A DNA stretch of 48,813 nucleotides from an uncultured Bacilli bacterium (lineage in GTDB: Bacteria > Bacillota_I > Bacilli_A > RF39 > UBA660). The notes under the pieces are model-generated. The model saw only the letters and a program-made list of their open reading frames with translations, did not search any database and was not told where the DNA came from. A program made the translations under genes and the position numbers. This document shows, piece after piece, positions 1-48,813 of this stretch (position 1 is the stretch's first letter; each line of letters begins with the position of its first letter). The stretch lies in assembly GCA_947628905.1 (NCBI GenBank), contig CANRBQ010000004.1, positions 1-48,813 of the forward strand, given 5' to 3'.

Positions 1-1464
1 ACTAAAAAAGTATTATTAGTTTTAGTTGTATTAGTAGCAATAACAACAACTATAGTTTCTTTAAGTTCAAGAGCAAAGTATCAAGTAACTAGTAGTGTTC
101 AAATAGTAAAAGGTAAAGTATCATATCAACCATATGATTTTAAGATAGTAAAAATATACCAAGAAAATGATACAGGAAGTTATGATGAAGTAGATGAAGT
201 ACCAACAACAGAATATGAAATAAATGAAGAAGATAGTAAATGTATGATAGATGATAATACCAAAGATACAGAAGCAATATTAAAAACAATAAATGGTAAT
301 CATACATTTGCTAATCTAAAGAAGATGGATAAGTGTACTGTATATTTTAGTAAAATTCCAACTCCAGAAGATACATTAGCTCAATTAAATAAAGCAAGTG
401 AAAAAGGAACAACAGATGGTTTTACAAATATGGATACAACAGAACATAAAAATAATGAAAAAACAATTATGTATAGTGATGAAGATGATTTAGGAACAAC
501 ATACTATTTTAGAGGCAAAGTAAAAGATAATTGGGTTAAGTTTGGAAAAGAAGGTAATGATGATATATGGTGGCGAATCATCAGAATCAACGGCAATGGT
601 TCAATAAGGATGATATATGCTGGTAAAGGAACTAGTGCTCCAACAAGTGATGGATATTTAAACAATAATAGAACAGGTAGTCAATTACAAATAAGTGGAT
701 ATAATACGTATTCTAATGATAATAAATATGTAGGGTACATGTATGGAACAGATAAAACAGGCAGCGCCACTAAAGAAACCACCCCAACAACTAGTTATGA
801 TCAAGCGCATACTAATAATTTTGATAGTGATATTAAAAAAATATTAGATAATTGGTATAATACTAATCTAAAAACAGAATATGGAAAATACATAGATTCA
901 AATGCTGGATTTTGTAATGATAGAAAAATAGCAACAATAAGTATAAATGACTATGGAACAGAAGGATATGGAAGTTATTCAACAGTATATATAGCAGAAG
1001 ACAGATTAATAAATACAAATTGGAATGCTAATACAAAACATACTCCAACATTCAAGTGTAGTGAAAGATTTAATATATTTTCACTTCCAGGAGCACAAAA
1101 ACCAAATGGAGAAGATTATGGAAATCATAAATTAAGAGCTAACAATGGAACAGGAGAAAATAGTCCAATAGGATTAATAACCATAGATGAAGCAGTATTT
1201 GCAGGAGGATACTATTCTAGACTAGATAATCAATCCGATAATACACAATTTTACTTATATACAGGACAAACTTATTGGACCATGACTCCAGCTTACTTCA
1301 GCATTTACGGCTATGCTACCATATTCATTATACATAAGAATGGCTACCTTGTTGACAATGGTGTGAGCAGTGGGAATGGTGTTCGCCCAGTAATAAATCT
1401 CTCTGCTAATGTTAAATTATCAGGTGAAGGAACATACACCAACCCATATACAATTTCTGATTAA
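1..1464 (+). CDS. 5'-truncated secreted/surface protein, paralog of 34464..35933, with DGR-target-like (CLec/DUF6273-like) C-terminus
   Basis: Frame is open from base 1 (TKKVLLVLVVLVAITTTIVSLSSRAKYQVTSSVQIVKGKVSY), so the true start is upstream of the window, not at 244. Shares the motifs DDLGTTYYFRG, WRIIRINGNGSIRMIY, PIGLIT.DE and WTMTP...GVRPVINL with the paralog. Confidence 0.8.
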   Translation, partial: TKKVLLVLVVLVAITTTIVSLSSRAKYQVTSSVQIVKGKVSYQPYDFKIVKIYQENDTGSYDEVDEVPTTEYEINEEDSKCMIDDNTKDTEAILKTINGNHTFANLKKMDKCTVYFSKIPTPEDTLAQLNKASEKGTTDGFTNMDTTEHKNNEKTIMYSDEDDLGTTYYFRGKVKDNWVKFGKEGNDDIWWRIIRINGNGSIRMIYAGKGTSAPTSDGYLNNNRTGSQLQISGYNTYSNDNKYVGYMYGTDKTGSATKETTPTTSYDQAHTNNFDSDIKKILDNWYNTNLKTEYGKYIDSNAGFCNDRKIATISINDYGTEGYGSYSTVYIAEDRLINTNWNANTKHTPTFKCSERFNIFSLPGAQKPNGEDYGNHKLRANNGTGENSPIGLITIDEAVFAGGYYSRLDNQSDNTQFYLYTGQTYWTMTPAYFSIYGYATIFIIHKNGYLVDNGVSSGNGVRPVINLSANVKLSGEGTYTNPYTISD

Positions 1465-1495
1465 AAATTATAAAATACTTTTATTAATATAAACA

Positions 1496-1565
1496 CTTGC
1501 TCATATTGCTCTAAATTTTTATGTATGGGCAGGAAATATATGCAGGGCTCTCTCCTTGCATTTTT
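1496..1565 (+). ncRNA. conserved 3' structured element: 10-bp stem-loop plus terminator-like hairpin (copy 1)
   Basis: Stem 1496-1505/1524-1533 with loop starting TTGCTCTAA; hairpin 1541-1547/1554-1560 followed by T5. Homologous to 34375..34446 on the minus strand. Confidence 0.6.
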
Positions 1566-1576
1566 AATTGTATATA

Positions 1577-1604
1577 AAAATTGTTAAGCACAAACTTAAC
1601 AATT
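1577..1604 (-). terminator. perfect 11-bp inverted repeat, likely terminator of the convergent operon
   Basis: aaattgttaag-cacaaa-cttaacaattt at the stop of ORF 1604..2098. Confidence 0.6.
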
Positions 1605-2098
1605 TACTTCTTTAATACTATATACTGACTCAACCATTTTTTAAATGCATCATCTTTCTGATATCTATCAGTATCTTCATCATCATCAGCATTCAAATAA
1701 TCAACAATTTCCCCTTCTTTTACAATTATTAAACTTGGGGCTATTTTAACTTTTTCATAAAAAACTGTGTCTTTAAATTCCTCAAATGGTATTTTTAAAA
1801 CATCAATTTTATATTTATCCATAACTTTCTTAAATACACTATCACAAGGTATAGGAAAGTTACAATAATTATTATAAGTAAATAGCAAAAATGTTTTTTT
1901 ATTATTTACTAAATCTTCTACCTTTTTATTATCAATCTGAATATAATTACCATCTTTATAATATTCACTATCTAACATAAATTGATTATCATTTTTTTCT
2001 ACTTCTTTATCATTATTAAAAAAATAAAAAGCTAATATTCCACCAATTATAACTAATAAAATAATTCCCCCAATTATCCAAAATTTTTTATTCTTCAT
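1604..2098 (-). CDS. membrane-anchored thioredoxin-fold protein (C-x5-C)
   Basis: N-terminal TM helix; FLLFTYNNYCNFPIPC and PSLIIVKEGEIV resemble a thioredoxin fold; coupled to the upstream gene by a TAATG overlap. Confidence 0.6.
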   Translation of the reverse strand: MKNKKFWIIGGIILLVIIGGILAFYFFNNDKEVEKNDNQFMLDSEYYKDGNYIQIDNKKVEDLVNNKKTFLLFTYNNYCNFPIPCDSVFKKVMDKYKIDVLKIPFEEFKDTVFYEKVKIAPSLIIVKEGEIVDYLNADDDEDTDRYQKDDAFKKWLSQYIVLKK

Positions 2099-2787
2099 TA
2101 TTTAACCTCAGTAAGTAAACTAAAATCAATATCATGATATGTCACTTTCCAAAAATCATAAACAGTTTTATTATTTTTATTAACTCTTTTTACTTCTACT
2201 TTATTATTACCTTCATAATACCAGTAACCACCAACATTATATATTTTATCTTTATCCCAACCTAAAGCAATTAGCATATTCTTAGTCATTCCAGCATAGC
2301 CTCCCCCGCCACACATTAAGAATATATTTTTATCTTTAGGAAAATAATATTCCAAAATATCTAAAGACTCTTCATAATTTGCCGTATATTTTCCATCATC
2401 TGAAACTGTAAATAAAGTTTTACCAGTATATGTTTTACCAACTTCATCAGGAAGTCCAGTAACATTAACAAGAAGTGGATATGGTACAACTTCAAAGCCT
2501 TTCACAAAACCTGAAAGATAAGAATCTCCCCCTATAGCTTCATAATTTCCAGGATCTTTTAACATTCTCATATCAACATAAACACTATCTTCCCTATTTA
2601 AATAGTTATCTATTGTAGATTCATTAATATTTTTATCAATTCCAAACTGTTCTCCTCTAATACCTCCTGTAACCTCAGGTTTTGGTAATTCAACTAATAA
2701 TTCTTTTTCTTCTTCCTTTCCACTAGAACAAGCACAAAGAGTAATACATAGTATTCCCATTAAAAATAATCTTAAACTTTTTTTCAT
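2098..2787 (-). CDS. rhodanese-like domain lipoprotein
   Basis: Lipobox LCAC; VYVDMR and IFLMCGGGGYA (rhodanese active-site Cys loop); IYNVGG motif. Confidence 0.7.
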   Translation of the reverse strand: MKKSLRLFLMGILCITLCACSSGKEEEKELLVELPKPEVTGGIRGEQFGIDKNINESTIDNYLNREDSVYVDMRMLKDPGNYEAIGGDSYLSGFVKGFEVVPYPLLVNVTGLPDEVGKTYTGKTLFTVSDDGKYTANYEESLDILEYYFPKDKNIFLMCGGGGYAGMTKNMLIALGWDKDKIYNVGGYWYYEGNNKVEVKRVNKNNKTVYDFWKVTYHDIDFSLLTEVK

Positions 2788-2881
2788 ATTTCTTCTCCTT
2801 TTCTGCTATAATTTTATCATTTCTAAAATTTACAAGCAATAACTTTAAAGTTGAAATACTCAACTAAAAGTTGAATCAATA

Positions 2882-3586
2882 TTAATTAACTCCACAACTA
2901 TCATTTAAATCTAAAGGTATCTTATAAGTAGTAATCTTATTATCATTATCTGTTGCATTTATCATTAAATAAAGAGTATTATCATGATAATCTTTACAAG
3001 ATTTTTTATAATCATCAACGGCTAATGTAACTTTTTGTAAAAAATCTTCTAATTTAATAGTTTTATTTTTATTATACTTATAAGAACTAATAATCTTTTG
3101 AGTATCTTCATCACCTTCATATAAAGTACATTCAATATCTTTATAATCGGAAGTATCATTACCTCCACAATACTGAATATTTGTTATATAAATAGAAGAT
3201 TTTTTATCATTATAAGCAATATTCCCCGAAATATTAAAATTATCACATCCACTAGATAATGTTTTAAAAGCAAAATCACTTTTATCTTTAACTAAAAACC
3301 AAATTATCAATCCTAAAACTATAACTATTAATAATAAACCAATTATTATTAAAATCTTTTTACTTTTCTTATTTTCTTTATATTCTCCCTGAAATAATTC
3401 TTCCAAACTAACATTAAAATCTTTACTAATTTCTTTAATTAAAGTAATATCAGGCATATTTTTTCCTGTTTCCCACTTACTAACAGCCTGATAAGTAACA
3501 TTATATTTATCAGCAAATTCCTTCTGTGTCATATTATTTTTTAATCTTAAATCTCTAATAAACTGTCCAAATTTCTCTTGATTCAC
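2882..3586 (-). CDS. XRE-family HTH regulator with TM helix and extracellular domain
   Basis: QKEFADKYNVTYQAVSKWETGKNMPD HTH followed by a hydrophobic segment. Confidence 0.85.
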   Translation of the reverse strand: MNQEKFGQFIRDLRLKNNMTQKEFADKYNVTYQAVSKWETGKNMPDITLIKEISKDFNVSLEELFQGEYKENKKSKKILIIIGLLLIVIVLGLIIWFLVKDKSDFAFKTLSSGCDNFNISGNIAYNDKKSSIYITNIQYCGGNDTSDYKDIECTLYEGDEDTQKIISSYKYNKNKTIKLEDFLQKVTLAVDDYKKSCKDYHDNTLYLMINATDNDNKITTYKIPLDLNDSCGVN

Positions 3587-9792: not shown

Positions 9793-12612
9793 TTACTTAA
9801 CCACAATATTAACTATTTTCCCTTTAATAACAATTATTTTAACTATATCTTTACCATCTGTATGTTTCTTAACATTTTCATTATTTAAAGCTTTATCTTT
9901 AATACTTTCCTCATCTTCATCTGCTTTAACAGTAATTTCTCCTCTAAGTTTTCCATTAACTTGTACTCCAATTGTAACTTCATCATCAACTGTTTTAGCT
10001 TCATCATATGTTGGCCAATCCATTGCCGCGATATGTTTAGTATAACCAATCTCTTCATTTAATTCTTCTGTAATATGTGGAGCAATTGGATTTAATAAAA
10101 CTAATAATGTTTGATAATCTTTTTTAGTTATTTCTTTTTTATCTTCATAATTATTTGCTAAAATCATCAAACTAGAAACTGCTGTATTATATTTCATTGT
10201 AGCTAAATCATTAGTTACTTTTTTTATTGTTTTATGAATAATATTTTCTAAATCTTTTGAATATTCTTCTTTATCATTAATCTTTTCTTTTAATTTAATT
10301 ACTCTATCTAAAAATCTTTTACAACCTTTAAGCCCTTCATTACTCCATGGAATATCTTTTTCATAATCTCCCATGAACATTTCAAATAGTCTTAAAGTAT
10401 CTGCTCCATATTTATTTACAACATCAACTGGATTAATTCCATTTCCTTTAGATTTACTTATTTTAGTTCCATCTTCCGCTAAAATCATTCCATGAGCAAC
10501 TCTCTTTTTAAATGGTTCTGGTGTAGGTACTAATCCTTGATCATAAAGGAATTGATGCCAAAATCTTGCATAAAGTAAATGTCTTGTTGCATGTTCCATT
10601 CCCCCATTATAATAATCTACCATTCCCCAATACTTAAGAGCATCTTGCCCCACAAATTCTTTATCATTATGAGGATCCATATAGCGTAGCCAGTACCAAC
10701 TAGAACCAGCCCAGTTAGGCATTGTATCAGTCTCTCTTTTGGCCATTTTACCACACTTAGGACAAGGAGTATTAACCCATTCTGAAATATTGGCAAGTGG
10801 TGATTCTCCTGTATCTGTTGGTTCATAATGAGCAACTTTAGGAAGTAAAACTGGAAGTTCTTCTTCTGGTACAGGAACCCAACCACAATCTTCACAATAA
10901 ATCATTGGAATAGGTTCACCCCAGAATCTTTGTCTTGAAAATATCCAATCTTGTAAACGATAATTAACTGTTTTTTTACCAACTTTTTTCTCTTCTAAAA
11001 ATTCAAGCATTCTTTTAATAGCGGCTTCTTTATTAAGACCATTTAAGAAATCTGAATTAATATGAATGCCATCTCCCACCATAGCTCCAGGATTTAAAGC
11101 ATACATAAATGTTTTAGAGTGTAGTTCATCCTTAATTTCTTCTAAAATTGTTTTTTTATCTACCCATTCACAATCAAATTTTTCATCTGCATCTAAAGAC
11201 TGCGAATCTTGTTCATAATTATCTAATTCAAAATATAAACCTGTAGAATTAATATTAAAATATTTATCTTTATTATAAGCATAATAATGATGATTAATAA
11301 TTGGTAAAGTATATTTTAATGTTAAATTCTTATAACCCGTTTCTTCTTTTATTTCTCTAAGAGCACAATCTAATGGACTTTCATTTTCTTTAATTGTTCC
11401 TCCTACAAATAAACGTCCTCCTAATTCATGCCAATTAATAGTTAAATACTTATTTTCTTTTTTATCATAAACAATAGCAACGATAGAATTTTTCTTAACT
11501 TCATCTTTATTAGGAGTACCAGTTTCTTCTGCTAAAACCTGAATAATAGGTATATTAAATTTCTTAGCAAAAGCATAATCTCTCTCATCATGGGCAGGAA
11601 CTGCCATGATTGCTCCAGTTCCATAAGAAGCTAAAACATAATCACTTATATATATTGGTATTTCTTCATTATTAACTGGATTTATTGCTACTAAACCTTC
11701 TAATTTAACTCCAGTTTTATCTTTTGTTACATCAGTTCTTTCTATTTCACTTTTTTGTCTTGCAGCTTCTTGATAAGATTCTACTTCTGAAATATTTTTA
11801 ATTCTATCTTTATATTTTGTAAGAAAATCATGTTCTGGTGACATAACCATAAAAGTTACTCCAAATAAAGTATCACATCTCGTAGTAAATACTTTTAATA
11901 CATCATCAGTATCTTTAAGTTTAAAATCTACTTCAGCCCCAATACTTTTACCTATCCAATTTATTTGAGCTGTTTTAATTTTTTCTTCAAACTCTGTATC
12001 TTTAAGCCCATCAAGTAATCTATCTGCATAATCACTCATTCGTAAAATCCACTGTGATTTTAACTTTTTAGTTACAACTGAACCACATCTCTCACAAACT
12101 CCTCCTGCAGCATCTTCATTAGAAAGTCCTGTTCTACAATTAGGACACCAATTTATTTCTTTTAAAGCTTTATAAGCCATTCCCTTTTTTACAAATTGTA
12201 AAAACTGCCACTGTGTCCATTTATAATATTCTGGATCTGTTGTTGCAAACTCTCTTGACCAATCAAAAGACATACCTAAAGCCTCAATTTGTCCTTTAAA
12301 AGTTTTAATATTTTCCTTTACAGCATCTGCTGGATATATATGATTTTTTATCGCATATTGTTCTGCTGGAGCCCCAAAAGCATCCCATCCCATTGGAAAT
12401 AAAACATTATACCCTTGTAAACGTTTCATTCTAGCCATTGCATCTAATGCTGAATAACTTCTAACATGCCCCACATGTAAACCTGATCCACTTGGATAAG
12501 GAAATTCTACTAATATATAATATTTTTCTTTATTCCCCCCATTTTTAGCTTCAAAATAATGGTTATCAGCCCATATTTTTTGCCATTTTTTTTCTACTTC
12601 TTTTGTATTCAT
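9793..12612 (-). CDS. leuS: leucyl-tRNA synthetase with inserted Nudix domain
   Basis: FPYPSGSGLHVGH, GWDAFG, FTTRCDTLFG, GTGAIMAVPAHDERD, DWIFSRQRFWGEPIP, KISKSKGN. Confidence 0.98.
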   Translation of the reverse strand: MNTKEVEKKWQKIWADNHYFEAKNGGNKEKYYILVEFPYPSGSGLHVGHVRSYSALDAMARMKRLQGYNVLFPMGWDAFGAPAEQYAIKNHIYPADAVKENIKTFKGQIEALGMSFDWSREFATTDPEYYKWTQWQFLQFVKKGMAYKALKEINWCPNCRTGLSNEDAAGGVCERCGSVVTKKLKSQWILRMSDYADRLLDGLKDTEFEEKIKTAQINWIGKSIGAEVDFKLKDTDDVLKVFTTRCDTLFGVTFMVMSPEHDFLTKYKDRIKNISEVESYQEAARQKSEIERTDVTKDKTGVKLEGLVAINPVNNEEIPIYISDYVLASYGTGAIMAVPAHDERDYAFAKKFNIPIIQVLAEETGTPNKDEVKKNSIVAIVYDKKENKYLTINWHELGGRLFVGGTIKENESPLDCALREIKEETGYKNLTLKYTLPIINHHYYAYNKDKYFNINSTGLYFELDNYEQDSQSLDADEKFDCEWVDKKTILEEIKDELHSKTFMYALNPGAMVGDGIHINSDFLNGLNKEAAIKRMLEFLEEKKVGKKTVNYRLQDWIFSRQRFWGEPIPMIYCEDCGWVPVPEEELPVLLPKVAHYEPTDTGESPLANISEWVNTPCPKCGKMAKRETDTMPNWAGSSWYWLRYMDPHNDKEFVGQDALKYWGMVDYYNGGMEHATRHLLYARFWHQFLYDQGLVPTPEPFKKRVAHGMILAEDGTKISKSKGNGINPVDVVNKYGADTLRLFEMFMGDYEKDIPWSNEGLKGCKRFLDRVIKLKEKINDKEEYSKDLENIIHKTIKKVTNDLATMKYNTAVSSLMILANNYEDKKEITKKDYQTLLVLLNPIAPHITEELNEEIGYTKHIAAMDWPTYDEAKTVDDEVTIGVQVNGKLRGEITVKADEDEESIKDKALNNENVKKHTDGKDIVKIIVIKGKIVNIVVK

Positions 12613-18030: not shown

Positions 18031-18435
18031 ATGAAAAATGATTTTTATACTTTAACAACTTATTTACACAATCAAAACTTTATTACTTATGCTATGGAAG
18101 ATTATATTGAAATGCTTTATCGAACTAATATTAATAATGAAACTTTAAATATCACTAAATTAAGTAATTTACTTCATATCAAAAAATCATCTTGCAGTAA
18201 GATGATTACTAAACTAAAAAATCTAAATATTATCAACCCAGATAAATTAATATTAACTAATAAAGGCCTTAAAATTGGTAAATATCTTTACAAAAGACAT
18301 GAAATATTAACTATATTCTTACAAAAACTTAATAAAAAGGATTTTACTTTAGAACAAGTTGAAAAAATAGAACACTTTATTGACCCTCTAACTCTTAAAA
18401 ATATTCAAAAGTTAATTACCAATAAACTTAATTAA
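18031..18435 (+). CDS. DtxR/MntR-family metal-dependent regulator
   Basis: MEDYIEMLY, SCSKMITKL, YKRHEILTIFL, VEKIEH. Confidence 0.88.
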   Translation: MKNDFYTLTTYLHNQNFITYAMEDYIEMLYRTNINNETLNITKLSNLLHIKKSSCSKMITKLKNLNIINPDKLILTNKGLKIGKYLYKRHEILTIFLQKLNKKDFTLEQVEKIEHFIDPLTLKNIQKLITNKLN

Positions 18436-29671: not shown

Positions 29672-29929
29672 TTAACCTTTCCAAGGGCATGTAATAACTT
29701 CATTTTCATTTCCTCTAACGTGACATTGTAAATATCCTCCCACTGGAATTTGACATCTGCCTTGTTCATCTTTATCTTCACAAACACATATAGCCATATC
29801 ACAATTTGTACTTTGCCTAAAACCACCATGTATTCTTGGCCATAGAAAAGAAAAGAAAAAAAAGGCCAACAGTGCCACTATAATAACTACAACAACCGTT
29901 ACATTAAGCTCACCAGTAGCCTCTTTCAT
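29672..29929 (-). CDS. small pilin-like protein
   Basis: MKEATG|ELNVTVVVV, hydrophobic helix, Cys-rich tail. Confidence 0.6.
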   Translation of the reverse strand: MKEATGELNVTVVVVIIVALLAFFFFSFLWPRIHGGFRQSTNCDMAICVCEDKDEQGRCQIPVGGYLQCHVRGNENEVITCPWKG

Positions 29930-29948
29930 ATTATCTTACCTCCATTTG

Positions 29949-30221
29949 TTAGCTTGTAGTAGGACCTTCGCCATTTTTATAACGACAAGTTCCAGACCAA
30001 ACTACTTCATCACCTTCGTAAGCTTCACAACTAGTACAAGTCATTGTACCATCTCTGTTTTCACAATGTTCAGCACCACACTGTGCCATTGAACAATAAG
30101 TATTAGCTTCAATAGAATTTTTAATACCAGGCCATACGAAAGCATAGAAGAATGCTGCGACTGCCGCAATTGCTACTACAGTAACAACTGTCATATTTAA
30201 CTCACCTGTAGCTTCTTTCAT
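29949..30221 (-). CDS. small pilin-like protein (candidate major subunit)
   Basis: MKEATG|ELNMTVVTVV, hydrophobic helix, six Cys; strong RBS AAAGGAGG. Confidence 0.6.
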   Translation of the reverse strand: MKEATGELNMTVVTVVAIAAVAAFFYAFVWPGIKNSIEANTYCSMAQCGAEHCENRDGTMTCTSCEAYEGDEVVWSGTCRYKNGEGPTTS

Positions 30222-33563: not shown

Positions 33564-34376
33564 ATGACTGAAAAAAAACATACAGTAATTAAAATTATAG
33601 CTATCTTAATAATTATTATATTTATACTTTATTTATATGCTAGATATATTAATCCTATAAGCTTCAAAGTAATTGAAACCCCAATTTATGATACTAATTT
33701 AAATGAAAATTATAATGGTTTAAAAATAGCTCATTTATCAGATATTCATTATGGAAGAACAACAACAGAAGATAATTTAAAAAAAATAATTAAAGAAATA
33801 AATAAATTAAATGCAGATATTATAATATTTACTGGAGATTTATTTGATTATAAAAAAATATCTAAAGAAGATAAAGATTTAATGATCAAATATTTAAAAA
33901 AAATAAATTCTAAACTTTATAAATTTGCTATTATAGGTGATTATGATGAATTATATTTAAGTGATTATACAGAAATATTAACAGAATCTAATTTTATTTT
34001 ATTAAATAATACTTCTAAATTAGTTTATTATAATAATTCTACTCCTATAAATTTTATAGGCTTAACTAACACAGAAAATATTGAAGAACTATATAACAAT
34101 GATTATTATAATATTACTCTTATTCATAAACCAGATTTAATTAAAGATATTAAAAACACTAATTTAGCTTTTGCTGGTCACTCTTTAGGAGGACAATTTA
34201 AGATTCCTTTTATTGGTGGCATAAGAAAAATAGAAGGAGCAGAAACATACATTGATAATTACTATAAAATAAATAATACTAAACTCTTTATTTCTAATGG
34301 TATAGGAACACAAGATATAAGTCTAAGATTATTTAATACTCCATCAATAACTCTATATAGATTATATAATAACTAA
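33564..34376 (+). CDS. membrane-anchored metallophosphoesterase (YkuE-like, degenerate motifs)
   Basis: HLSDIH, FTGDL, HKPD, AGHSLGGQ, ISNGIG; likely start 33564. Confidence 0.82.
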   Translation: MTEKKHTVIKIIAILIIIIFILYLYARYINPISFKVIETPIYDTNLNENYNGLKIAHLSDIHYGRTTTEDNLKKIIKEINKLNADIIIFTGDLFDYKKISKEDKDLMIKYLKKINSKLYKFAIIGDYDELYLSDYTEILTESNFILLNNTSKLVYYNNSTPINFIGLTNTENIEELYNNDYYNITLIHKPDLIKDIKNTNLAFAGHSLGGQFKIPFIGGIRKIEGAETYIDNYYKINNTKLFISNGIGTQDISLRLFNTPSITLYRLYNN

Positions 34377-34446
34377 AAAAGCGAGGAGAAACCCCGCATG
34401 GAATTTAATCTTGCCCAAGAATATAAGTTAGAGCAACTTAGGCAAG
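34375..34446 (-). ncRNA. conserved 3' structured element (copy 2)
   Basis: Minus strand: CTTGCCTAAG-TTGCTCTAACTTATATT-CTTGGGCAAG ... GCGGGG-TTTCT-CCTCGC-T6. Confidence 0.6.
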
Positions 34447-34463
34447 TTTTTTATTACTTTAAT

Positions 34464-35933
34464 TTATTGAACTATATATGGATTAGTGTATGTACCATCA
34501 CCTGATAATTTCACATTAGCAGAGAGGTTTATCACAGGACGAGCACCATCAGTATTATACATAGCATCAGGTTCAATACCATAATTCAGACAAAAAACCT
34601 CTGCATATACACTTAACCTATATGGAGACATAGTCCAACTACCAGCGTTTGTATATAAGTAAAATTTTCTATTATTTGTTGAATCATCAGATTTGCGTCG
34701 ATAACCTCCTGCAAATACTACTTCATCTGCTGTTATCAAACCAATTGGGCTATTATCTCCTGTTCCATTGTTAGCTCTTAATTTATGATTTCCATAGTCA
34801 CTTCCATCTAGTTTTTGTGCTCCTGGAAGTGTAAATGTGTCATTTATTTGACTACATTTAAACGTTGGAGTATTTTTTTCATTTGCTTCTCCATTTGAGT
34901 TTGAAAATCTACTCATTGGGGCATAAGCAGTTTCTTCTTTTTTATATCCTTTTGCTGTATCATCTTTCCACCATTGATTTGGAGTTGTATTAATTTGTCT
35001 ATCATTGCAAAATCCAGCATTTGAATCTATATATTCTTCATATTCTGCTTTTAGATTTGAACTATACCAGCTATCTAATTTTTTCTTTATTGTACTATCA
35101 TTTTCATTTTTGTGAGTGTCCTCATATTTACTTGATCCTGATGTTCCATACATATATCCTACATAAATATTATCTGAAGAATAAGTTGAATTATATGAAA
35201 CATTCTGTAAAGTACTTTTATATCCATTATTATTTAAATATCCATCATCTGTTGGGATAGTAGTTCCAGTTCCAGTATATATCATTCTTATTGAACCATT
35301 ACCATTTATTCGAATAATTCGCCACCATATGTCCTCACTTCCTACTTTTCCAAACTTTACCCAATTGTCTTTTACTCTTCCTCTAAAATAGTATGTTGTT
35401 CCTAAATCATCTTCATCACTATATAATATAGACTTGTCATTTTCCCCTATATGTTCCTCAACATCCATATCTGTAAAACCGTCTTTATTACCTTCCTCTA
35501 TTGTTCTATTTGCTAATAGTTGTTCTCTAGCGTATACGTACATATCTAAATAAACATAACATTTAGTACCTTTTTTAGTTATACTTATGCTTACTTTTCC
35601 ATCTTTATATTCCATTGGTATATCTTTATGTTGTATATTATCTCCTGGAATTGTACAGTAACTTTTTTCTTTATTTAATTCATAACTCCCTTTTGGTACT
35701 TCATCAGTTGGATTATATGTCTCACTATATTCAGATTCTTGTACTTTTAAAGCTACAACATTTAAATCTGCTAAACTATAACTAACTTTTCCTTTAACTA
35801 TTTGAATATTACTTGTTACATGATATTTTGCTCTACTATTTGTTATATATATTATTCCCATTAACAATACTAATATTGTTATAACTAATACTATTTTCTT
35901 TTTTCTTCCTTTACTTAACTTCTCTATCCTCAT
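34464..35933 (-). CDS. secreted/surface protein, paralog of 1..1464
   Basis: N-terminal TM/signal helix plus SRAKY..IVKGKVSY; same core motifs; C-terminus WTMSP...GARPVINLSANVKLSGDGTYTNPY. Confidence 0.85.
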   Translation of the reverse strand: MRIEKLSKGRKKKIVLVITILVLLMGIIYITNSRAKYHVTSNIQIVKGKVSYSLADLNVVALKVQESEYSETYNPTDEVPKGSYELNKEKSYCTIPGDNIQHKDIPMEYKDGKVSISITKKGTKCYVYLDMYVYAREQLLANRTIEEGNKDGFTDMDVEEHIGENDKSILYSDEDDLGTTYYFRGRVKDNWVKFGKVGSEDIWWRIIRINGNGSIRMIYTGTGTTIPTDDGYLNNNGYKSTLQNVSYNSTYSSDNIYVGYMYGTSGSSKYEDTHKNENDSTIKKKLDSWYSSNLKAEYEEYIDSNAGFCNDRQINTTPNQWWKDDTAKGYKKEETAYAPMSRFSNSNGEANEKNTPTFKCSQINDTFTLPGAQKLDGSDYGNHKLRANNGTGDNSPIGLITADEVVFAGGYRRKSDDSTNNRKFYLYTNAGSWTMSPYRLSVYAEVFCLNYGIEPDAMYNTDGARPVINLSANVKLSGDGTYTNPYIVQ

Positions 35934-35957
35934 ATCTTTCTCTTCTTTCTAATTGAT

Positions 35958-36024
35958 TTACTCAATTATATTAGAAATTTCTAACTTATACTAAAATTAT
36001 AATCTAATGAATGTCAAAAGTCAA
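35958..36024 (-). promoter_or_regulatory. sigma-A promoter plus conserved leader with palindromic operator (copy 1)
   Basis: TTGACT, 17 nt, TATAAT; palindrome TTAGAAATTTCTAA at 35971-35984; 35958-36006 is identical to the reverse complement of 48765-48813. Confidence 0.85.
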
Positions 36025-36099
36025 GAAAAAGTTGGCTATTTCGGCACTATGATTTTAAGAATTCAAATTTAATGAGACAATTATTTTAGGTGATTAAAA

Positions 36100-36555
36100 T
36101 TGGAATATGGTATTAAAATGAAAGAAATAAGATTAGAAAAGAAAACTAGCCAAAAAGAAATTGCAAATTACTTAGGTATATCCCCAATAACTTATAGTCA
36201 TTATGAAACACAAGATACAACAATACCTATTAAACATTTATATAATTTTTGCAATTATTTTAATAGTTCAATTAATTATATATTTAGTTTTTCAAATATA
36301 AAATATGGAAAATATAATAACGAAAAAATTAATAAAACAATTTCTGGCGAACGACTAAAAAATTTTAGAAAAGAAAACAAACTGACTCAGAGTAAACTTG
36401 CCAAAACCCTAAATACTGATAAAACCGTAATATGCAATTATGAAAAAGGCAAAAATATTATTGCTACCCCATTTCTATATTCTTTATGTAAAAACTATAA
36501 AATATCAGCTGATTATCTTTTAGGAAGAACAGACTTTCCTAAATATTTAAAATAA
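36100..36555 (+). CDS. tandem (double) XRE HTH regulator
   Basis: Two HTH_3-like repeats; TTG start after AGGTGA; paralog of 48217..48672. Confidence 0.88.
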   Translation: MEYGIKMKEIRLEKKTSQKEIANYLGISPITYSHYETQDTTIPIKHLYNFCNYFNSSINYIFSFSNIKYGKYNNEKINKTISGERLKNFRKENKLTQSKLAKTLNTDKTVICNYEKGKNIIATPFLYSLCKNYKISADYLLGRTDFPKYLK

Positions 36556-36601: not shown

Positions 36602-38185
36602 CTAATCAATTAAGTATTTTTTAACTGCTATTCCTAAAACTCCTAAACCAACAACTCCAGCACCTACAAAAGTAAGTAAACTATCTAATGTCTTTGGAGC
36701 TTCTTCTACTTTCTCATCTTCTAACTTAGCAATTAAATACATTCCATTAGTAATATTAGTATTTAAATTTAATTCATTTCCCTCTTTATCAGTAAAACCT
36801 ACAACATTTAAACCAGTTGCTTTTAAATCATCTAATAAATTTTGTAAAGTAGAACCACTTTTAACTTTATAATTTTCTTTTACTTCATCTTTTATAACTA
36901 AAGTAATATATAAACTATTTAAATCTTCATCTACAATAAATTGTCCAGATACAGTAACATCACTATCAGGCATTATAAATGTATTATTTGTTATCTCTAT
37001 AGTATCTTCTGTACTCTTATTAGTAACTTTCAAACTTTCAGTATCTAACTTATAACCCGCATTTGGAGAAGCCATTATTTTAACTGTATCACCTGCAGCA
37101 GCATAAACTGGATTAGTTGTTATAGTTCCATTTTGAACTGTACTTACCTCTACAACATGTAAAGCGTCTCCCTCTAAATTTTCTAACTTACCAGTAGTTA
37201 AATCTATATTAGCTCCTTCTTCTAAAGTAATATCTTGAGGATCTATTTTAACATTTCCTTTTATTGTAAGAGTATGTCCCGCTTTAACAGTTAAACTACC
37301 ATTTTGGGCATTTAATGTAACACCTGCTGGAACTTCTAAATCTTCATCAATAGTTACATTACCATTAATATTAATATTTTTAGAATAATTTTGAGCAATC
37401 ATTGCTTCTTTTAAACTTGGAAAATATCCTTCTTTATTAAAGTTTCCTTTATCTCCAGTTTCAACTGTTTCACTTTCAACTGGAAATGTAGTATGAACAT
37501 TTACTAAAAGATAATATTTCTCACTATAACTATCAGCATCACTTGTAAAAACCCCTACATAAGATCTATCTTCATATCCATAAAATACATAATCAGTACC
37601 ATAAACTAATTGACTAAAAGATTTATCACTAAACTTATCATCTATAGCGTCTCTAACAGTTTTATTTCCTGTAGCCCCTCCATCATTAAGTGGAACAAAC
37701 TTACTTTGATTATTATCATAGTAATCTATTTTTATTTGAGGAACCCAAACACTATTATTTGTTAAAGGACTCTCACTTCCAATTTGACTATCTACTGCAC
37801 TTTTAGCACTCGCCATATTTTCTACACCATTAAAAGGCTCAGAACATTTTTTAAAATTACTTCCTGCAATACTTGTATCTATTCCAAAATATAATGTTCC
37901 AAATACTGCTGGACTATTAGCATTACCAGCTTTATGATTTAATATTGCCTCTATTGCTTCATCATTTAAACCATTTGTTGTAATATCAACTACTGAAACT
38001 TTTAATTTATCATCATATCTAACTGTAATATTAGATGTACTACTATCTCCTAAATAATCATAAGCTTTTAATCCTGGAATCTCTTTACTATTAAATACAA
38101 CATCTTCTGCTTTAACATTCAAATTAAAACCTAGCATAAATGCACTAACAACCATTAACCCCAATAATTTTTTTAAGCTTTTCAT
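36602..38185 (-). CDS. cell-surface protein with signal peptide, InlB-B-like repeat and sortase-like anchor
   Basis: AxA signal peptide; NGTITTNP...AGDTVKI...PNAGYKL...TFIMPDSDVTVSGQF; C-terminal APKTLD, TM helix, KK. Confidence 0.7.
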   Translation of the reverse strand: MKSLKKLLGLMVVSAFMLGFNLNVKAEDVVFNSKEIPGLKAYDYLGDSSTSNITVRYDDKLKVSVVDITTNGLNDEAIEAILNHKAGNANSPAVFGTLYFGIDTSIAGSNFKKCSEPFNGVENMASAKSAVDSQIGSESPLTNNSVWVPQIKIDYYDNNQSKFVPLNDGGATGNKTVRDAIDDKFSDKSFSQLVYGTDYVFYGYEDRSYVGVFTSDADSYSEKYYLLVNVHTTFPVESETVETGDKGNFNKEGYFPSLKEAMIAQNYSKNININGNVTIDEDLEVPAGVTLNAQNGSLTVKAGHTLTIKGNVKIDPQDITLEEGANIDLTTGKLENLEGDALHVVEVSTVQNGTITTNPVYAAAGDTVKIMASPNAGYKLDTESLKVTNKSTEDTIEITNNTFIMPDSDVTVSGQFIVDEDLNSLYITLVIKDEVKENYKVKSGSTLQNLLDDLKATGLNVVGFTDKEGNELNLNTNITNGMYLIAKLEDEKVEEAPKTLDSLLTFVGAGVVGLGVLGIAVKKYLID

Positions 38186-40437: not shown

Positions 40438-41148
40438 TTACTTACAATAATTAATTAAATAATCATTACTTACTTTAGTATTTTTATCTATAACCCAATA
40501 TTCACTATCTTTATCAAAATTACATCTATATACATCATAAAACAATGTATCATAATATATAACATTACCAGTAGTTATAGAAACAATTCTAAACATTGGA
40601 GCTTCTTTATTAAGTTTTACATTTATGTAATCAGTAAATAATAATATTCCCATTGATATAATAAAAATAAGCACTATAATTAATAATCGTTTATACCATT
40701 TAATTATTTTTAACAATCTTGAAATACCAACCATAAAAATAATTATTCCCAAAACTGAATAAATAGAGCCCCAACTACTTTCACTTGGAAAAATCATAAT
40801 TGCAGATATAGAAATAAATAACCCAAAAATAACAAGAATTAAAGATATAAATTGACTATATTTATTTATCTTTTTTGTAGAATAAACAATCGTATTAACC
40901 ATATTTTCTTCAAACTTATTTTGATATTCATCTTCTCTTAATTTTTTTCCACTTAATAATTCATTTATTGTAATTCCAAGTATTTCGCATAAAGGTTTAA
41001 ATAATGATAAATCTGGCATATTCTTACCATTTTCCCAATTACTAACAGAACGATCTGTAACCCCTAATTGTTCTGCTAACTCCGATTGTGTTATCTTTTT
41101 TTCCTTTCTACATTTTGCAATAAATTTTCCAATATTTAATTGATCCAT
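40438..41148 (-). CDS. XRE-family regulator with TM helices
   Basis: TQSELAEQLGVTDRSVSNWENGKNMPD followed by three TM segments; likely start 41148. Confidence 0.85.
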   Translation of the reverse strand: MDQLNIGKFIAKCRKEKKITQSELAEQLGVTDRSVSNWENGKNMPDLSLFKPLCEILGITINELLSGKKLREDEYQNKFEENMVNTIVYSTKKINKYSQFISLILVIFGLFISISAIMIFPSESSWGSIYSVLGIIIFMVGISRLLKIIKWYKRLLIIVLIFIISMGILLFTDYINVKLNKEAPMFRIVSITTGNVIYYDTLFYDVYRCNFDKDSEYWVIDKNTKVSNDYLINYCK

Positions 41149-41355
41149 ATTTCCTCCTTTCATTTACAATTTTATAATATTTAACTATTTTTGAACATGA
41201 AATAAAACTTGAGTCTAATTATTTAACAAAAAATATATTAAAACTCCCAATATGCAATCTTGAATGTTCCTTTTTATGTTATACAAATTCTCTATATTAA
41301 ATATATTGCATTAAAAACAAGCTCTAAAGGAAGAAGTACGACAACCTTTATTTTA

Positions 41356-41697
41356 TTAATTTTTTATGACATCTGTATGAACTAAATAATTTGTTTTAGC
41401 TAAAACTCTATTAGCATACCATTCAATTTTCTCTTGATATGCTTCATTCTTTTTTAATCTTTCAAATTCTTTAATCAAATATAATTTAAAAGTAAGACTT
41501 AACCAACTTGCAAATTCAAATGTTATATCAGGATGAGCAAATGTTCCTTTATTACTCATCCAACATATTAGTACATTTGCAGGATTTTCAAGACTAGAAT
41601 ATTTTGCTAAATCAGTCAATAATATATATCATCAATTCTTAGAATGCCTATTTTATTGTTATTAACATTTATTTCTGTTTTAATTAACTTTTTTTAT
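41356..41697 (-). pseudogene. KilA-N domain protein pseudogene
   Basis: TDLAKY..NP...WM fused directly to GTFAHPDITFEFASWLS (internal deletion); RBS followed by ATA instead of ATG; frameshifted N-terminus; truncated C-terminus. Confidence 0.7.
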
Positions 41698-41748
41698 ATT
41701 TACCCCCCTTAATTACTAAAATCATTTTATCATAAATTATTAAATATA

Positions 41749-41780
41749 AAAACTCGAACTTATTAAAAAGTCCGAGTTTC
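41749..41780 (-). terminator. terminator downstream of tRNA-Leu
   Basis: Minus strand aaactcggac-tttttaataa-gttcgagttt followed by U residues. Confidence 0.65.
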
Positions 41781-41789
41781 CTATCTATT

Positions 41790-41875
41790 TGGTGCTTGTG
41801 GTGGGACTTGAACCCACACAAAGTTGCCTTCGCCAGATTTTGAGTCTGGTGCGTCTACCATTCCGCCACACAAGC
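41790..41875 (-). tRNA. tRNA-Leu(CAA)
   Basis: Acceptor GCTTGTG/CACAAGC, encoded CCA, anticodon arm CCAGA-CTCAAAA-TCTGG, long variable arm, GGTTCAAGTCC T-loop. Confidence 0.97.
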
Positions 41876-41946
41876 AACTAGCCATATTATAACATAAATA
41901 AATTAAAAAATCACAATTTTTTAATAAAATTGTGACATAAAATAGA

Positions 41947-43410
41947 TTATTGCTTTTTTGTTATATATTTTTGATTACTTGCATTAATATGGTCCTTATT
42001 TGTATAACTTAAAAGGCCTCTTTCTATTAAGGGTTTAATAATTTTTTCTCTAACATAACTTCTAGAATTAATATTAAGGTAACTCTTTATTTCAACTGTT
42101 GATTTAGGCAATGTACAATATTCTAATACTAATTTTTGATATTCTAACACTTGACCACTGACTTGACCACTAACTTGACCATTGACTACACTTGTATTTC
42201 TAAATATTACTTTAAAACTATCTCTTTCTTCATAAAATTCAGGCTCCGGTAAACCATAATTTTTCATTTCACGTCTCATAGTAGGAATACCTGAATGTCT
42301 ATTTTCAATAACTGATCCTTTTTCTTCAAGTATTCTAACTATAGTTGTATTTCTTGATTCCATAGTAGTTGCTGTGCCTAATTTTTCTATTTTATTTGTT
42401 CCATATAAAGCACCAGGATTTATTATTTCAATTCTATCATTATACATATATACAGAAATATAAGCATTTTCAGTTTGAGCACTATAATCCCTATGGATTA
42501 ACGCATTAGCTATCGCTTCTCTTAATGCTTCTAACGGATATTCAGTGCGATCTGTTCTTTTGCCATCAGAGTTAATTATGACACTTGTTTTCATATTTCT
42601 TTGTAAGAAATTCATAGTGCCTTCTAGCATTTCTTCAATAGTTCCTTCAATTCTTTTGTTATCTAAAAATCTTTCACCTAAAAGACCTACTTCTCCCAAT
42701 TCTTTTCCAGGAATAACAGTACAAGCAACAAATAATTGAGGATAAAAACTTTGAGGATATTCACCAAAAATAAGGGTACCAGCTAAAGTTGGATAAATAT
42801 TCTCTTCACTTAAATCAATTATTCCACTTAATTTTAAGCATTTATTATAATTATTTTTTGCAAAATTTGGTTTCTCTCTTTTTATTTTATCAATATATTC
42901 TTTTAATGCTTCATTATTTAAATCATTTAAACTAGCTCTTTTATTAGGTCTAATATCTTCAAAAATATGATCTTTATAACTTTGTAAAGCATATATCTCA
43001 TAATCCGTCATAAGCAAATCACTATCACCAATCCGTGTATAAGATCCACCTTTTAATCCCTTTGGCTTATAATAGCATGGCTTTTTATTTTGAGATATTT
43101 CATCAACTTTTACTGCTAATAATTGTTTTCCCTCATATTCAAAAGGTAGTATATCAGGTCTAATTATAGGTTCCATTGAATCGTTGCATAAAGAAGATAT
43201 TTTCTTTTGCAAATCATTTATATCATATACACCAGTTATTTCAAAATTTCTATTTTCATCAATTCCAAATATTATTATACCTCCGTATTTGTTTGAAAAA
43301 CTAGAAAGAGTATCATAACAAGTTGGAAAGCCACCCAAAGCTTTCTTAACTTCAATTCTATTATTTTCGGTTTGATATTTTTTCACATACTCTATGGCTT
43401 CTATAATCAT
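41947..43410 (-). CDS. AlbA_2 (Schlafen-like) plus HATPase-like domain protein (often annotated RecG-like/putative regulator)
   Basis: ENNRIEVK, SFSNKYGGIIIFGI, REAIANALIHRDY, IEIINPG, RN..IVRIL, SGIPTM. Confidence 0.85.
   Translation of the reverse strand: MIIEAIEYVKKYQTENNRIEVKKALGGFPTCYDTLSSFSNKYGGIIIFGIDENRNFEITGVYDINDLQKKISSLCNDSMEPIIRPDILPFEYEGKQLLAVKVDEISQNKKPCYYKPKGLKGGSYTRIGDSDLLMTDYEIYALQSYKDHIFEDIRPNKRASLNDLNNEALKEYIDKIKREKPNFAKNNYNKCLKLSGIIDLSEENIYPTLAGTLIFGEYPQSFYPQLFVACTVIPGKELGEVGLLGERFLDNKRIEGTIEEMLEGTMNFLQRNMKTSVIINSDGKRTDRTEYPLEALREAIANALIHRDYSAQTENAYISVYMYNDRIEIINPGALYGTNKIEKLGTATTMESRNTTIVRILEEKGSVIENRHSGIPTMRREMKNYGLPEPEFYEERDSFKVIFRNTSVVNGQVSGQVSGQVLEYQKLVLEYCTLPKSTVEIKSYLNINSRSYVREKIIKPLIERGLLSYTNKDHINASNQKYITKKQ
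42149..42184. repeat. 12-bp in-frame tandem repeat x3 (encodes GQVS-type linker)
   Basis: acttgaccactg acttgaccacta acttgaccattg. Confidence 0.85.
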
Positions 43411-47726: not shown

Positions 47727-48156
47727 CTATAATCACCTTCACTATAACTAATATAAAAGCACTTAATATTCCATAAAGAATAACACTACCCGCAAGTTTA
47801 AAAAAATTAGAACCCAAACCTGTAATTAAACCTTCTCTTTTATAATCTAAAGCACTACTTGATACTGAATGCGCAAATCCTGTTGTAGGAAGTAATAACC
47901 CAGCTTTAGCTTTACTCATCCAATCATCAAAAAATCCCAAAGCAGTAAACAAAGACGCAATAAAAATAACTATTAAACATGTCCAACTGCTAGCCTCTAT
48001 TCTTCCAATTTCAAAAATATTCATTAATACTTGAATAACCCCCTCAACTAAAAAGCCAATTGTACCTCCAACTAAAAAAGCAAAAATAGTATTCTCTAAT
48101 TTATTTTCTTTTGGTTCATGCTTCTTAACTAATTTTTGATATTCTTCTTTATTCAT
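47719..48156 (-). CDS. spoVAC: stage V sporulation protein AC
   Basis: AFLVGG.I, AKAG...PTTGFAHSV.S.A..YKREG, FKLAGSVI; likely start 48156. Confidence 0.93.
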   Translation of the reverse strand: MNKEEYQKLVKKHEPKENKLENTIFAFLVGGTIGFLVEGVIQVLMNIFEIGRIEASSWTCLIVIFIASLFTALGFFDDWMSKAKAGLLLPTTGFAHSVSSSALDYKREGLITGLGSNFFKLAGSVILYGILSAFILVIVKVIIGG

Positions 48157-48171
48157 ACTAACCTCCATTCT

Positions 48172-48200
48172 TATTATGAATAAATAAAAAAAAGTTATAC
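48172..48200 (-). promoter_or_regulatory. putative sigma-G-type promoter of spoVA
   Basis: GTATA, 17 nt, CATAATA upstream of the GGAGG RBS. Confidence 0.55.
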
Positions 48201-48216
48201 TTTATTTTGTATAACC

Positions 48217-48672
48217 TTAATTAATCTTCTTAGGATTATCTATTCTACCCAACAAATAGTCAGCAGACATTTTATAATTATCACATATTGTATATAAAAA
48301 TGGTGTAGGAATAAGTCTTTTTCCCTTTTCATAATCCGACAAAACAGACTGTGTAGTATTTAATAATTCACTTAATTTTTCTTGAGTAAATCTATTTTCT
48401 TTTCTAAAAGCCCTTAATCTTTCACCACTTTTCTTAAGATCAAAACCTTTAAAACAGTTATTATAATTCCTAGATTCACAAAAACTAAAAATATAGTCTA
48501 AAGAAACATTAAAATAATCACACAATACAATTAAATGTTTAATCGGAATTACTAAATCTTCTTTTTCATAATGACTATATGTTCCACTATCAAGATTAAT
48601 CATCTCCCCCGCTTTCCTTTGAGTTAAACCTTCCCTATTTCTTAAACTTTCCAATCTTTCTCTATAAAGCAT
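48217..48672 (-). CDS. tandem (double) XRE HTH regulator
   Basis: Two HTH repeats; TYSHYE..IPIKHL and GERL..FRKEN..TQ..SADYLLGR shared with 36100..36555. Confidence 0.88.
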   Translation of the reverse strand: MLYRERLESLRNREGLTQRKAGEMINLDSGTYSHYEKEDLVIPIKHLIVLCDYFNVSLDYIFSFCESRNYNNCFKGFDLKKSGERLRAFRKENRFTQEKLSELLNTTQSVLSDYEKGKRLIPTPFLYTICDNYKMSADYLLGRIDNPKKIN

Positions 48673-48746
48673 TTAAAATCACCATTATAATTCTTTCATA
48701 TCTAAGTTATAATGTCACATTTTACTGGAATTATACGATATTTTTC

Positions 48747-48813
48747 TTGACAATTTACACTTGCTAGATTATAATTTTAGTATAAGTTAGAAATTTCTAA
48801 TATAATTGAGTAA
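48747..48813 (+). promoter_or_regulatory. sigma-A promoter plus conserved leader with palindrome (copy 2), pointing out of the window
   Basis: TTGACA (48747-52), 17 nt, TATAAT (48770-75); TTAGAAATTTCTAA at 48787-48800. Confidence 0.85.

Follow-up and report, generated by a model that had tools for sequence, protein, structure and literature searches.

The 48,813-nt contig CANRBQ010000004.1 of an uncultured Bacilli bacterium (assembly GCA_947628905.1), which we call 'the window' and refer to at its full length, carries copies of a gene module. In each module the gene for an XRE-type regulator stands divergently beside the gene for a predicted secreted protein; a near-consensus promoter and a conserved leader lie between them, and a structured 3' element follows the second gene. 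The module is real, and it has not previously been described as a unit. Our reading is that the modules are paralogous units of XRE-controlled secreted proteins, with the operator in the leader and an RNA element at the 3' end, and that they diversify without a diversity-generating retroelement (DGR). As a whole we judge this reading rather more probable than its opposite, by no wide distance, and its parts differ in firmness.

One module is complete in the window, comprising the XRE gene (36100-36555), promoter and leader (35934-36024), the secreted-protein gene (34464-35933) and the 3' element (34371-34446). A 5'-truncated gene and its 3' element occupy the window start, and an XRE gene with promoter and leader the window end. 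An earlier note on this DNA had placed recurrent pieces of one module at these sites and both window ends within it; all the pieces are there, and both ends do fall inside the module, because the window is the entire contig. The genes are as follows.

34464-35933, minus strand: gene B, 489 amino acids (aa); a signal/anchor helix at the N-terminus is followed by a small beta-sandwich and then by a globular domain of 350 aa, a distant relative of DUF6273.
1-1464, plus strand: gene A, a paralogue of gene B from which the contig start cuts off about 10 codons; its identity profile is mosaic.
36100-36555, plus strand: XRE B, 151 aa, with a TTG start and two tandem helix-turn-helix (HTH) domains, divergent from gene B.
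48217-48672, minus strand: XRE C, a 151-aa two-HTH regulator (by Pfam) and a paralogue of XRE B.

Both regulators match HTH_3 (PF01381; 73.8-76.3 bits, cut-off 23) and HTH_19 (76.3-80.5 bits, cut-off 30.2), in two stretches each. In XRE B these stretches are residues 7-61 and 83-141, and the protein aligns over its full length with 13 paralogous XREs. As the earlier note had claimed, the non-coding flank is better conserved than the proteins: the leader is 90% identical over 73 nt (35958-36030 versus 48741-48813; 49 nt exact), compared with 47-49% aa identity between XRE B and XRE C and 55-56% between the products of genes A and B, which align at the nucleotide level in five collinear blocks at 77-85%. 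The 23-mer around the palindrome of the leader, TATAAGTTAGAAATTTCTAATAT, occurs twice in the window against 0.01 occurrences expected by chance. The two 3' elements (1496-1566 and 34371-34446) adopt the same two-hairpin fold.

The module recurs in related genomes. A scan of species-representative genomes returned 18 loci, nine of them from one metagenome-assembled genome (MAG) from rabbit gut, GCA_947630575.1, and look-ups added two more from the same assembly. This small MAG holds at least 11 copies of the family, at least eight linked to an XRE gene, and several others. At eight loci (L001, L002, L005, L007, L008, L009, L020 and L024) the upstream half of the module is complete, with a divergent two-HTH XRE of 143-161 aa together with the shared promoter and leader. 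Pairwise identity between copies is 75-99% for the 72-nt promoter/leader and, at the amino-acid level, 35-64% for the XREs and 41-60% for the genes. The neighbours of the modules in this MAG are housekeeping genes unrelated to them (rpoA/L17, recD2); elsewhere, in other samples, a module of this layout adjoins RNase J (same leader; an ENA sample) and parAB (diverged leader), and variants of the module occur in a MAG from Hadza human gut (L011, L013). These results bear out the idea of a dispersed multi-copy family with a common control region, there being at least eight paralogues with the same XRE, promoter and leader in GCA_947630575.1, and in that genome leader and 3' element do go together with family members, as the earlier note had expected of the source genome and its relatives. 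The leader, sought as an exact 23-mer and a degenerate 31-mer, found no match in JGI metagenome contigs. Because several family loci end contigs, the module can be said to break assemblies. We also considered the module as a mobile cassette and discarded the idea, since the module at the position of gene B is syntenic in a distant MAG (L016) and so is old at that site.

The window itself has about 25% G+C and a steadily negative GC skew. It is a complete 48.8-kb contig and a segment of chromosome, since it carries leucyl-tRNA synthetase (LeuRS), class I lysyl-tRNA synthetase (LysRS), Obg, ScpA/ScpB, SpoVA proteins, FeoB and a tRNA. This bears on how many modules it holds. Copies A and C have the same orientation, and if the end of the contig were joined to its start, the result would be a single module lacking about 54 nt; moreover, in the related MAG the XRE of L002 is the best match of XRE C, and the genes of L001 and L002 are the best matches of gene A, so that the two pieces share the same partner module type. 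It is thus conceivable that the window holds only two modules, XRE C with its leader and gene A being halves of one module split by some 54 unassembled bases, and the 'third copy' an artefact of the assembly break. We think this unlikely, though with a real claim to attention. It would need a 48.8-kb circle of essential genes, which is not credible, and the same facts are explained by two flanking modules in direct repeat that share an exact 5' stretch. In the related MAG such exact 5' tracts reach up to 80 nt between more divergent paralogues, the closest pair shares an exact tract of 132 nt inside the gene body, and many contig ends likewise lie at family loci. Since a contig so rich in housekeeping genes cannot be a small circle, three modules in total are the more likely arrangement.

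The control region between the two genes comprises these features.

35996-36024, minus strand: promoter of gene B, TTGACT-17 nt-TATAAT, with 11 of 12 consensus matches.
48747-48775, plus strand: promoter of module C, TTGACA-17 nt-TATAAT, with 12 of 12 consensus matches.
35971-35984, unstranded: a perfect 14-bp palindrome, TTAGAAATTTCTAA, beginning 11 nt past the -10 hexamer; candidate XRE operator O1.
35950-35968, unstranded: a second inverted repeat, TAATTGA-GTAAA-TCAATTA, read from the letters and present in the minimum-free-energy fold; candidate O2, or a weak RNA hairpin.
48776-48813, plus strand: leader of module C, with the palindrome at 48787-48800; the contig end cuts within the second inverted repeat.
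36072-36081, plus strand: a conserved box, ATGAGACAAT (ATGAGAAAAT in most copies), immediately 5' of the ribosome-binding site of XRE B.
48690-48699, minus strand: the counterpart of this box in module C, reading ATGAAAGAAT in the direction of the XRE gene; predicted extended -10 of XRE C, found by alignment and by a promoter scan (GTGACA-17-AAGAAT, with TG before the second hexamer).

Across all copies the -35 and -10 hexamers are fixed and most of the spacer varies, which points to selection on the motifs themselves. From the -10 hexamer onward, about 40 nt are almost invariant. A conserved block, TATAAG plus the palindrome, begins 5 nt after the -10, and the palindrome is found without mismatch in the two window copies as well as in 11 fetched loci; the second inverted repeat is kept in the 'long-form' leaders of L005, L008, L020, L021 and L024. 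All paralogues of one genome share a species-specific variant of the leader (TATAATTGAG in the window, TATGATTGAT in GCA_947630575.1), a pattern that fits either concerted evolution or co-evolution with common trans factors. Folded as RNA, the leader gives a consensus energy of -2.4 kcal/mol, no covarying pair and a z-score of -1.9; because the fold is weak and lacks covariation a DNA site is favoured, and we set aside the leader as a structured RNA. The boxes of CodY, Fur and SinR and the cre box do not fit the palindrome. On the XRE side, six of the ten columns of the conserved box are invariant across 10 aligned intergenic regions, and the box is also present in L022. Its layout (TGnNACAAT with AGGTGAT) also precedes an unrelated DUF192 gene at 23395, and for this reason we read the box as probably the extended -10 (TGn plus GAMAAT) of a weak XRE promoter.

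The 3' element consists of two successive structures, a hairpin and, after a short linker, a GC-rich terminator hairpin with a T run.

34410-34446, minus strand: 3' untranslated region (UTR) hairpin of gene B, with a 10-bp stem (CUUGCCUAAG/CUUGGGCAAG) and a 17-nt loop starting UUGCUCUAA; folding z-score -3.5.
34371-34397, minus strand: intrinsic terminator of gene B, a GC-rich stem followed by a T run, identified by terminator scan (34381-34397 plus the T run) and by folding.
1496-1566, plus strand: 3' element of gene A, with the hairpin at 1496-1533 (loop UUGCUCUAA...), the terminator at 1540-1561 and a T run; 78.6 bits, z-score -3.3.

Both window copies thus end in an intrinsic terminator, preceded by a hairpin that lies 17-31 nt past the stop codon (up to about 90 nt in some copies of the MAG). 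Among ten instances of this first helix every cell of the alignment is paired; at four of its ten pairs both partners have changed, and several pairs are U-G, but on the sense strand alone. These compensatory changes, together with U-G pairs confined to the sense strand, indicate that the hairpin functions within the mRNA, as RNA. When sequences are folded singly the structure reappears, with z-scores of -3.3 to -5.7. The loop varies from 17 to 21 nt, begins with U(U/C)GCU and usually contains UCUAA. A covariance model finds ten instances in 206 kb (window plus loci), each of them right behind a family gene; some of these genes (L004, L010) have other regulators. Against Rfam 15, the only window match at the gathering score is tRNA-Leu, and nothing reaches E ≤ 1 in 34300-36150. 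The hairpin is a new, family-specific 3' UTR RNA motif. It could serve in 3'-end protection, as a protein-binding site or as the body of a 3'-derived small RNA; most likely it would protect the mRNA end or bind a factor. Pairing of its loop with the leader or the ribosome-binding site amounts, by eye, to merely 5-7 nt, and we did not retain that idea. Nor did an integron attC-like reading survive: no integrase is present, the core sites do not match, and every gene comes with a promoter of its own.

How might such a module work? The near-consensus sigma-A promoter would be strongly active by default. The two HTH domains of the 150-aa XRE could read two half-sites in the operator region, that is, within the invariant block of about 40 nt, and binding there would block transcription. 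We infer, from position and conservation in the sequence, that the palindrome block is the operator of the divergent two-HTH repressor. Besides the weak RNA fold of the leader, two considerations favour this. One is that a consensus promoter needs no activator, and that a palindrome at about +1 to +20 occupies a standard repressor position. The other is that regulator type and palindrome co-vary across the family: L010 has a 65-aa single-HTH regulator and the palindrome ATACGACAATATATGTCGTAT at the same position; L025 has a 71-aa single-HTH regulator and ATACCAAC-N5-GTTGGTAT there; and L022, with a two-HTH XRE that is 48% identical, has a degenerate TTAAGAACCTTTAA at the palindrome position. 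Across the copies of a genome the operator stays the same while the XREs differ; cross-regulation of the copies within a single regulon is therefore probable.

Several observations weigh against this picture. One locus, L012, has an identical leader from the -10 onward and no adjacent XRE, so the leader is not strictly tied to a neighbouring regulator. Residues at the start of both recognition helices vary among the XRE paralogues and the operator is constant. The XRE clades do not follow the short and long forms of the leader. The invariant block, at about 40 nt, exceeds a single operator, and nucleotide conservation extends into the coding region; its length may have an RNA-level or recombination-based reason. 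As to the protein, there is no recognisable wall or membrane anchor except the N-terminal helix, and the product may be released rather than surface-bound; moreover, the products of genes A and B fall below every Pfam and NCBIfam threshold.

At L012 (2430-2727; Lapin-007 bin4) the -35 differs, and the upstream divergent open reading frame (ORF) encodes a 46-aa ribbon-helix-helix-like protein with a weak RelB-like match. We also considered the module XRE as the antitoxin of a type II toxin-antitoxin system. The HipB, MqsA and PezA models score far below cut-off, as do all NCBIfam matches of the XREs, and the partner is divergent, 489 aa long and equipped with a signal/anchor helix; we rejected this candidate.

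The same observations lend some support to a different view of the leader, in which it acts as RNA, offering an RNA-binding protein or a small RNA a site in the 5' UTR and perhaps acting jointly with the 3' hairpin, or in which it binds a regulator encoded elsewhere; the neighbouring XRE would control something else or itself only. That L012 carries the leader and has no XRE would then need no explaining, nor would recognition helices that vary while the site does not; conservation that spans about 40 nt and continues through the first 70 codons at synonymous sites, and conserved elements at both ends of the mRNA, would be expected. We rate this view as unlikely. The leader RNA is weakly folded and without covariation, and the 3' hairpin loop, as read from the letters, pairs with merely 5-6 nt of the leader. 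A perfect palindrome right after a consensus -10, beside a divergent HTH gene, is the classic layout of a repressor, and other subfamilies repeat that layout with other palindromes and other HTH proteins.

A plainer account would see here an ordinary family of paralogues whose promoters are alike only through the keeping of a good promoter, with no shared regulation and with a 3' element that serves termination only. Large families of secreted proteins are common (the present fold alone accounts for 10,558 clusters), and consensus promoters and terminators are generic. We nevertheless hold this to be very unlikely: conservation goes beyond the -35 and -10, extending some 40 nt downstream and including a perfect palindrome; the leader variants are species-specific and genome-wide; and the additional 3' hairpin, with its compensatory changes and conserved loop, is not needed by a terminator.

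From end to end, genes A and B are set apart by indels and by substitutions of all twelve types. The syntenic orthologue L016 (Hadza MAG; between LytR/PAP2 and phosphoesterase/Rce1 genes) is 32% identical, whereas three of its four flanking genes are at 64-65% (PAP2, 47%), from which it follows that the gene body evolves fast. The 5' end behaves differently. Over the first 210 coding nt, paralogues are 71-93% identical, against 52-68% for the rest of the gene, except in the two closest pairs (L001-L002, 88%; L007-L021, 79%). At identical residues, synonymous codon identity is 0.86-0.88 in codons 1-70, compared with about 0.60 expected; beyond codon 70 it is at or modestly above expectation (excess at most 0.10), and at expectation in the strongly conserved WWRIIRINGNGSIR core. 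Exact tracts differ from pair to pair, and nearest neighbours change between the 5' part and the body (L005-L007, 93% versus 56%). Such a mosaic is what patchy recombination among the 5' ends of paralogues leaves behind. The earlier note had proposed gene conversion, and this much of the proposal stands: there is mosaic homogenisation at the nucleotide level over the 5' 210 nt. An apparent reshuffling between L007 and L021 resolved into one collinear alignment and gives no evidence of shuffling. The diversity of the proteins can thus be ascribed to gene duplication, a fast-diverging body and exchange among paralogues by recombination at the conserved 5' end.

The note's other proposal, diversification by a DGR acting in trans, found no support. 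Domains of the DUF6273 type are targets of gut-phage DGRs, with the variable region at the domain C-terminus (PMC10743442, PMC11792537, bioRxiv 10.1101/2024.10.15.618418); the YWTM-GVRPVINL interval, the usual site of such variable regions, is among the most divergent stretches between A and B, and a hairpin does lie downstream of the gene. No window ORF of at least 80 aa matches a reverse transcriptase (RVT) or Avd model, however; the reverse transcriptase motif is absent from six-frame translations of the first 19 loci fetched; and the window holds no template-like third copy of the 3' coding region. In a template/variable repeat pair, mismatches would be limited to template adenines and indels would be absent. 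Genes A and B do not behave like this: the candidate region itself contains indels, and because the differences run over the whole length and are of every substitution type, a single trans-acting template for the family is excluded. The hairpin is AT-rich apart from its base, with a loop of 17-21 nt instead of a short one and no GC-rich stretch ahead of it of the kind expected of an initiation of mutagenic homing (IMH) site, and its tolerance of G-U pairs is in line with RNA. A DGR elsewhere in the source genome could still act on single copies, but that these are C-type-lectin-fold proteins hypermutated by such an element, with the 3' hairpin as its target-recognition structure, we consider highly improbable.

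The structure of these proteins was judged from gene B. Its AlphaFold2 model has a confidence (pLDDT) of 87 overall and 95 for residues 140-489, and comprises a helix (residues 11-31), a linker of low confidence but conserved sequence (SRAKYxVTSxIQIV), the small beta-sandwich and the 350-aa globular domain. Conserved cysteine pairs, among them an invariant one in the beta-sandwich, fit an extracytoplasmic location. Because SRA|KY looks like a signal-peptidase site, the product could be released; alternatively, it could be anchored by its helix. The full-length model gave only noise against the PDB, and a sequence-profile search of solved structures found nothing; the isolated 350-aa domain was needed. 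With Foldseek, its best PDB match is 9qa6 (E = 6.8e-5, probability 1.0, 351 columns, 13% sequence identity), and its BFVD matches to DUF6273 phage proteins have probabilities of 0.98-1.0. The fold is thus that of DUF6273, yet the TM-scores are low (0.23-0.36), and the relationship must therefore be distant. Pfam DUF6273 (PF19789) matches neither of the two window proteins at E ≤ 0.01, nor P0001 at E ≤ 1; weak matches occur in 27 of 48 close relatives (best E = 8e-6), some of which carry a precomputed DUF6273 label. Read from the alignment, the C-terminal pattern ITADE ... YWTMSP ... GVRPVINL resembles that of DUF6273 domains. The earlier note's 'CLec-like adhesin' can be kept in part: the protein is a distant relative of DUF6273, a domain described as C-type-lectin-like (PMC10743442), but its significant fold matches are DUF6273 proteins and not lectins, true C-type lectins matching at E > 4 only. 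The product may bind a ligand.

The family is large (10,558 clusters at 50% identity and E ≤ 0.001, giant multi-repeat proteins included), and the close relatives of the window gene come from rabbit and Hadza human gut, in MAGs that bear the label 'uncultured Bacilli bacterium'. Some members are arranged differently. At L003 (402-4213), L006 (2998-6454) and L017 (220-4212) family genes form tandem pairs or triplets and have no XRE; some of them encode larger proteins (610-857 aa), whose N-termini end in ...LAYFVG and look like signals of the TasA/SipW type. NCBIfam gave no match for a SipW-type signal in these, and we dropped that assignment. In a Hadza MAG (CAKOPK01), L014 (83-92) and L017 (2992-3001) have a G10 tract in the signal-peptide codons, in a genome of about 25-30% GC; as assembled the tract breaks the frame, which G9 would restore, and this looks like slipped-strand phase variation. 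In the window there is no G/C run of 7 or longer and no A/T run of 11 or longer. In GCA_947630575.1, three contigs end 70-100 nt past the stop codon of a family gene (L002, 4492-4577; L008, 4456-4558; L024, 3971-4042) in sequence that lacks the 3' hairpin. L008 and L024 terminate within a common sequence (ctatggacagtttt...aggaggaagaaaaatttcgaccag), of which L002 matches only the first 20 nt or so. This suggests a second multi-copy element downstream of some copies.

A number of neighbouring genes in the window deserve mention in their own right. Beside XRE B, and convergent to it, lies the gene for a 527-aa surface-type protein (36602-38185, minus strand) with an InlB B-repeat (Flg_new_2) domain and a hydrophobic C-terminal anchor; it is missing from the syntenic Hadza locus L016. 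Two more XRE-type genes (2882-3586 and 40438-41163, both minus strand) encode proteins of 234 and 241 aa with a single N-terminal HTH and a long uncharacterised C-terminal part; apart from the HTH, they are unrelated to the module XREs. LeuRS (939 aa; 9793-12612, minus strand) has an unusual architecture, with a NUDIX hydrolase domain (Pfam E = 2.9e-12, residues 377-494) inserted directly behind the editing domain, and LysRS (23721-25298, minus strand) is of the class I type (PF01921, E = 4e-113), uncommon in Firmicutes/Bacilli. The single tRNA gene, tRNA-Leu(CAA) at 41790-41875, lies between a KilA-N fragment ORF (41356-41619) and a Schlafen/AlbA_2 ATPase gene (41947-43410), and the region 41356-43410 may be what is left of an element that had inserted at the tRNA. 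A Tad-type pilus cluster (18412-23023, minus strand), with no linkage to the modules, encodes two T2SSF proteins (TadB/C-like), a TadA/CpaF ATPase, a ParA-like protein, a 123-aa ORF without assignment and a TadE-like protein. Downstream of YfhO, five consecutive ORFs (27642-30221, minus strand; 332, 159, 173, 85 and 90 aa) have no Pfam match, and the three largest of them (332, 159 and 173 aa) have none in an NCBIfam scan either. The window also encodes a GH31 glycosidase, an MMPL transporter and a LytR-CpsA-Psr protein.

Why might such modules matter? Uncultured low-GC gut Bacilli devote many loci to this family, at least 11 in one small MAG. The fold is one that gut phages use for receptor binding and that also heads an IgA protease. 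For a family without known function, the module offers several handles: a defined promoter with a candidate operator, a candidate repressor for each copy and a new 3' UTR motif. It also explains why assemblies break at these loci. If the shared operator means coordinated or exclusive expression, it would give gut commensals a simple transcriptional route to surface variation. The boldest form of this idea is that paralogous XREs acting on a shared operator form a cross-repressing network, such that one, or a changing subset, of at least 10 secreted binding proteins is expressed at a time, with surface or antigenic variation arising without DNA rearrangement and the 3' hairpin coupling the copies post-transcriptionally as a new RNA motif. 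We regard this as quite unlikely, if attractive.

Known systems resemble parts of the module. The best solved match of the 350-aa domain, 9qa6, is the IgA peptidase ThomasA of Thomasclavelia ramosa, whose N-terminal DUF6273 domain is dispensable for IgA cleavage and of unknown function (PMC12402451). ThomasA, too, is secreted, and its host also belongs to a low-GC gut lineage (Bacilli/Erysipelotrichales), but its DUF6273 domain is part of a larger chain that also contains an M64 peptidase, beta domains and a sortase motif, whereas here the domain stands alone behind a small beta-sandwich. With the C-type-lectin-like receptor-binding domains (DUF6273/DUF1566) of gut phages ('tentaclins', Mtd-like), the present family shares the fold and the C-terminal motif pattern; unlike them it is chromosomal, comes without a detected DGR, lies below the Pfam threshold and gives low TM-scores.

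The Mycoplasma vlp, vsp and vsa lipoproteins are multigene families of variable surface proteins with a conserved 5' expression region. The resemblance lies in the many paralogues per genome, in a conserved promoter, leader and signal-peptide region joined to a divergent mature part and, in some relatives here, in a homopolymer switch (G10 in L014 and L017). Of the marks of a phase-variable surface family, the window copies have the paralogues with a conserved 5' region; they have no DNA switch at the expression site, neither homopolymer nor invertible, and no lipoprotein signal. They are also dispersed and not clustered, and each has a divergent XRE and a structured 3' UTR of its own. As for the regulator, SinR of Bacillus subtilis is an XRE repressor that controls secreted matrix proteins (tapA-sipW-tasA), and the closest solved sequence to the module XRE, 7t8i, belongs to the ICEBs1/phage Xre repressor group. 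Like these, the module pairs a small HTH protein of the Cro/C1 type with a palindrome that overlaps the start of a strong promoter, here that of a secreted-protein gene. Unlike them, it places two HTH domains in a single chain of 150 aa that lacks an oligomerisation or sensor domain, gives each target copy its own regulator and has a different operator. The novelty is therefore moderate: multigene families of secreted or surface proteins are a familiar theme, and what is new is the architecture of the module and the RNA motif at its 3' end.

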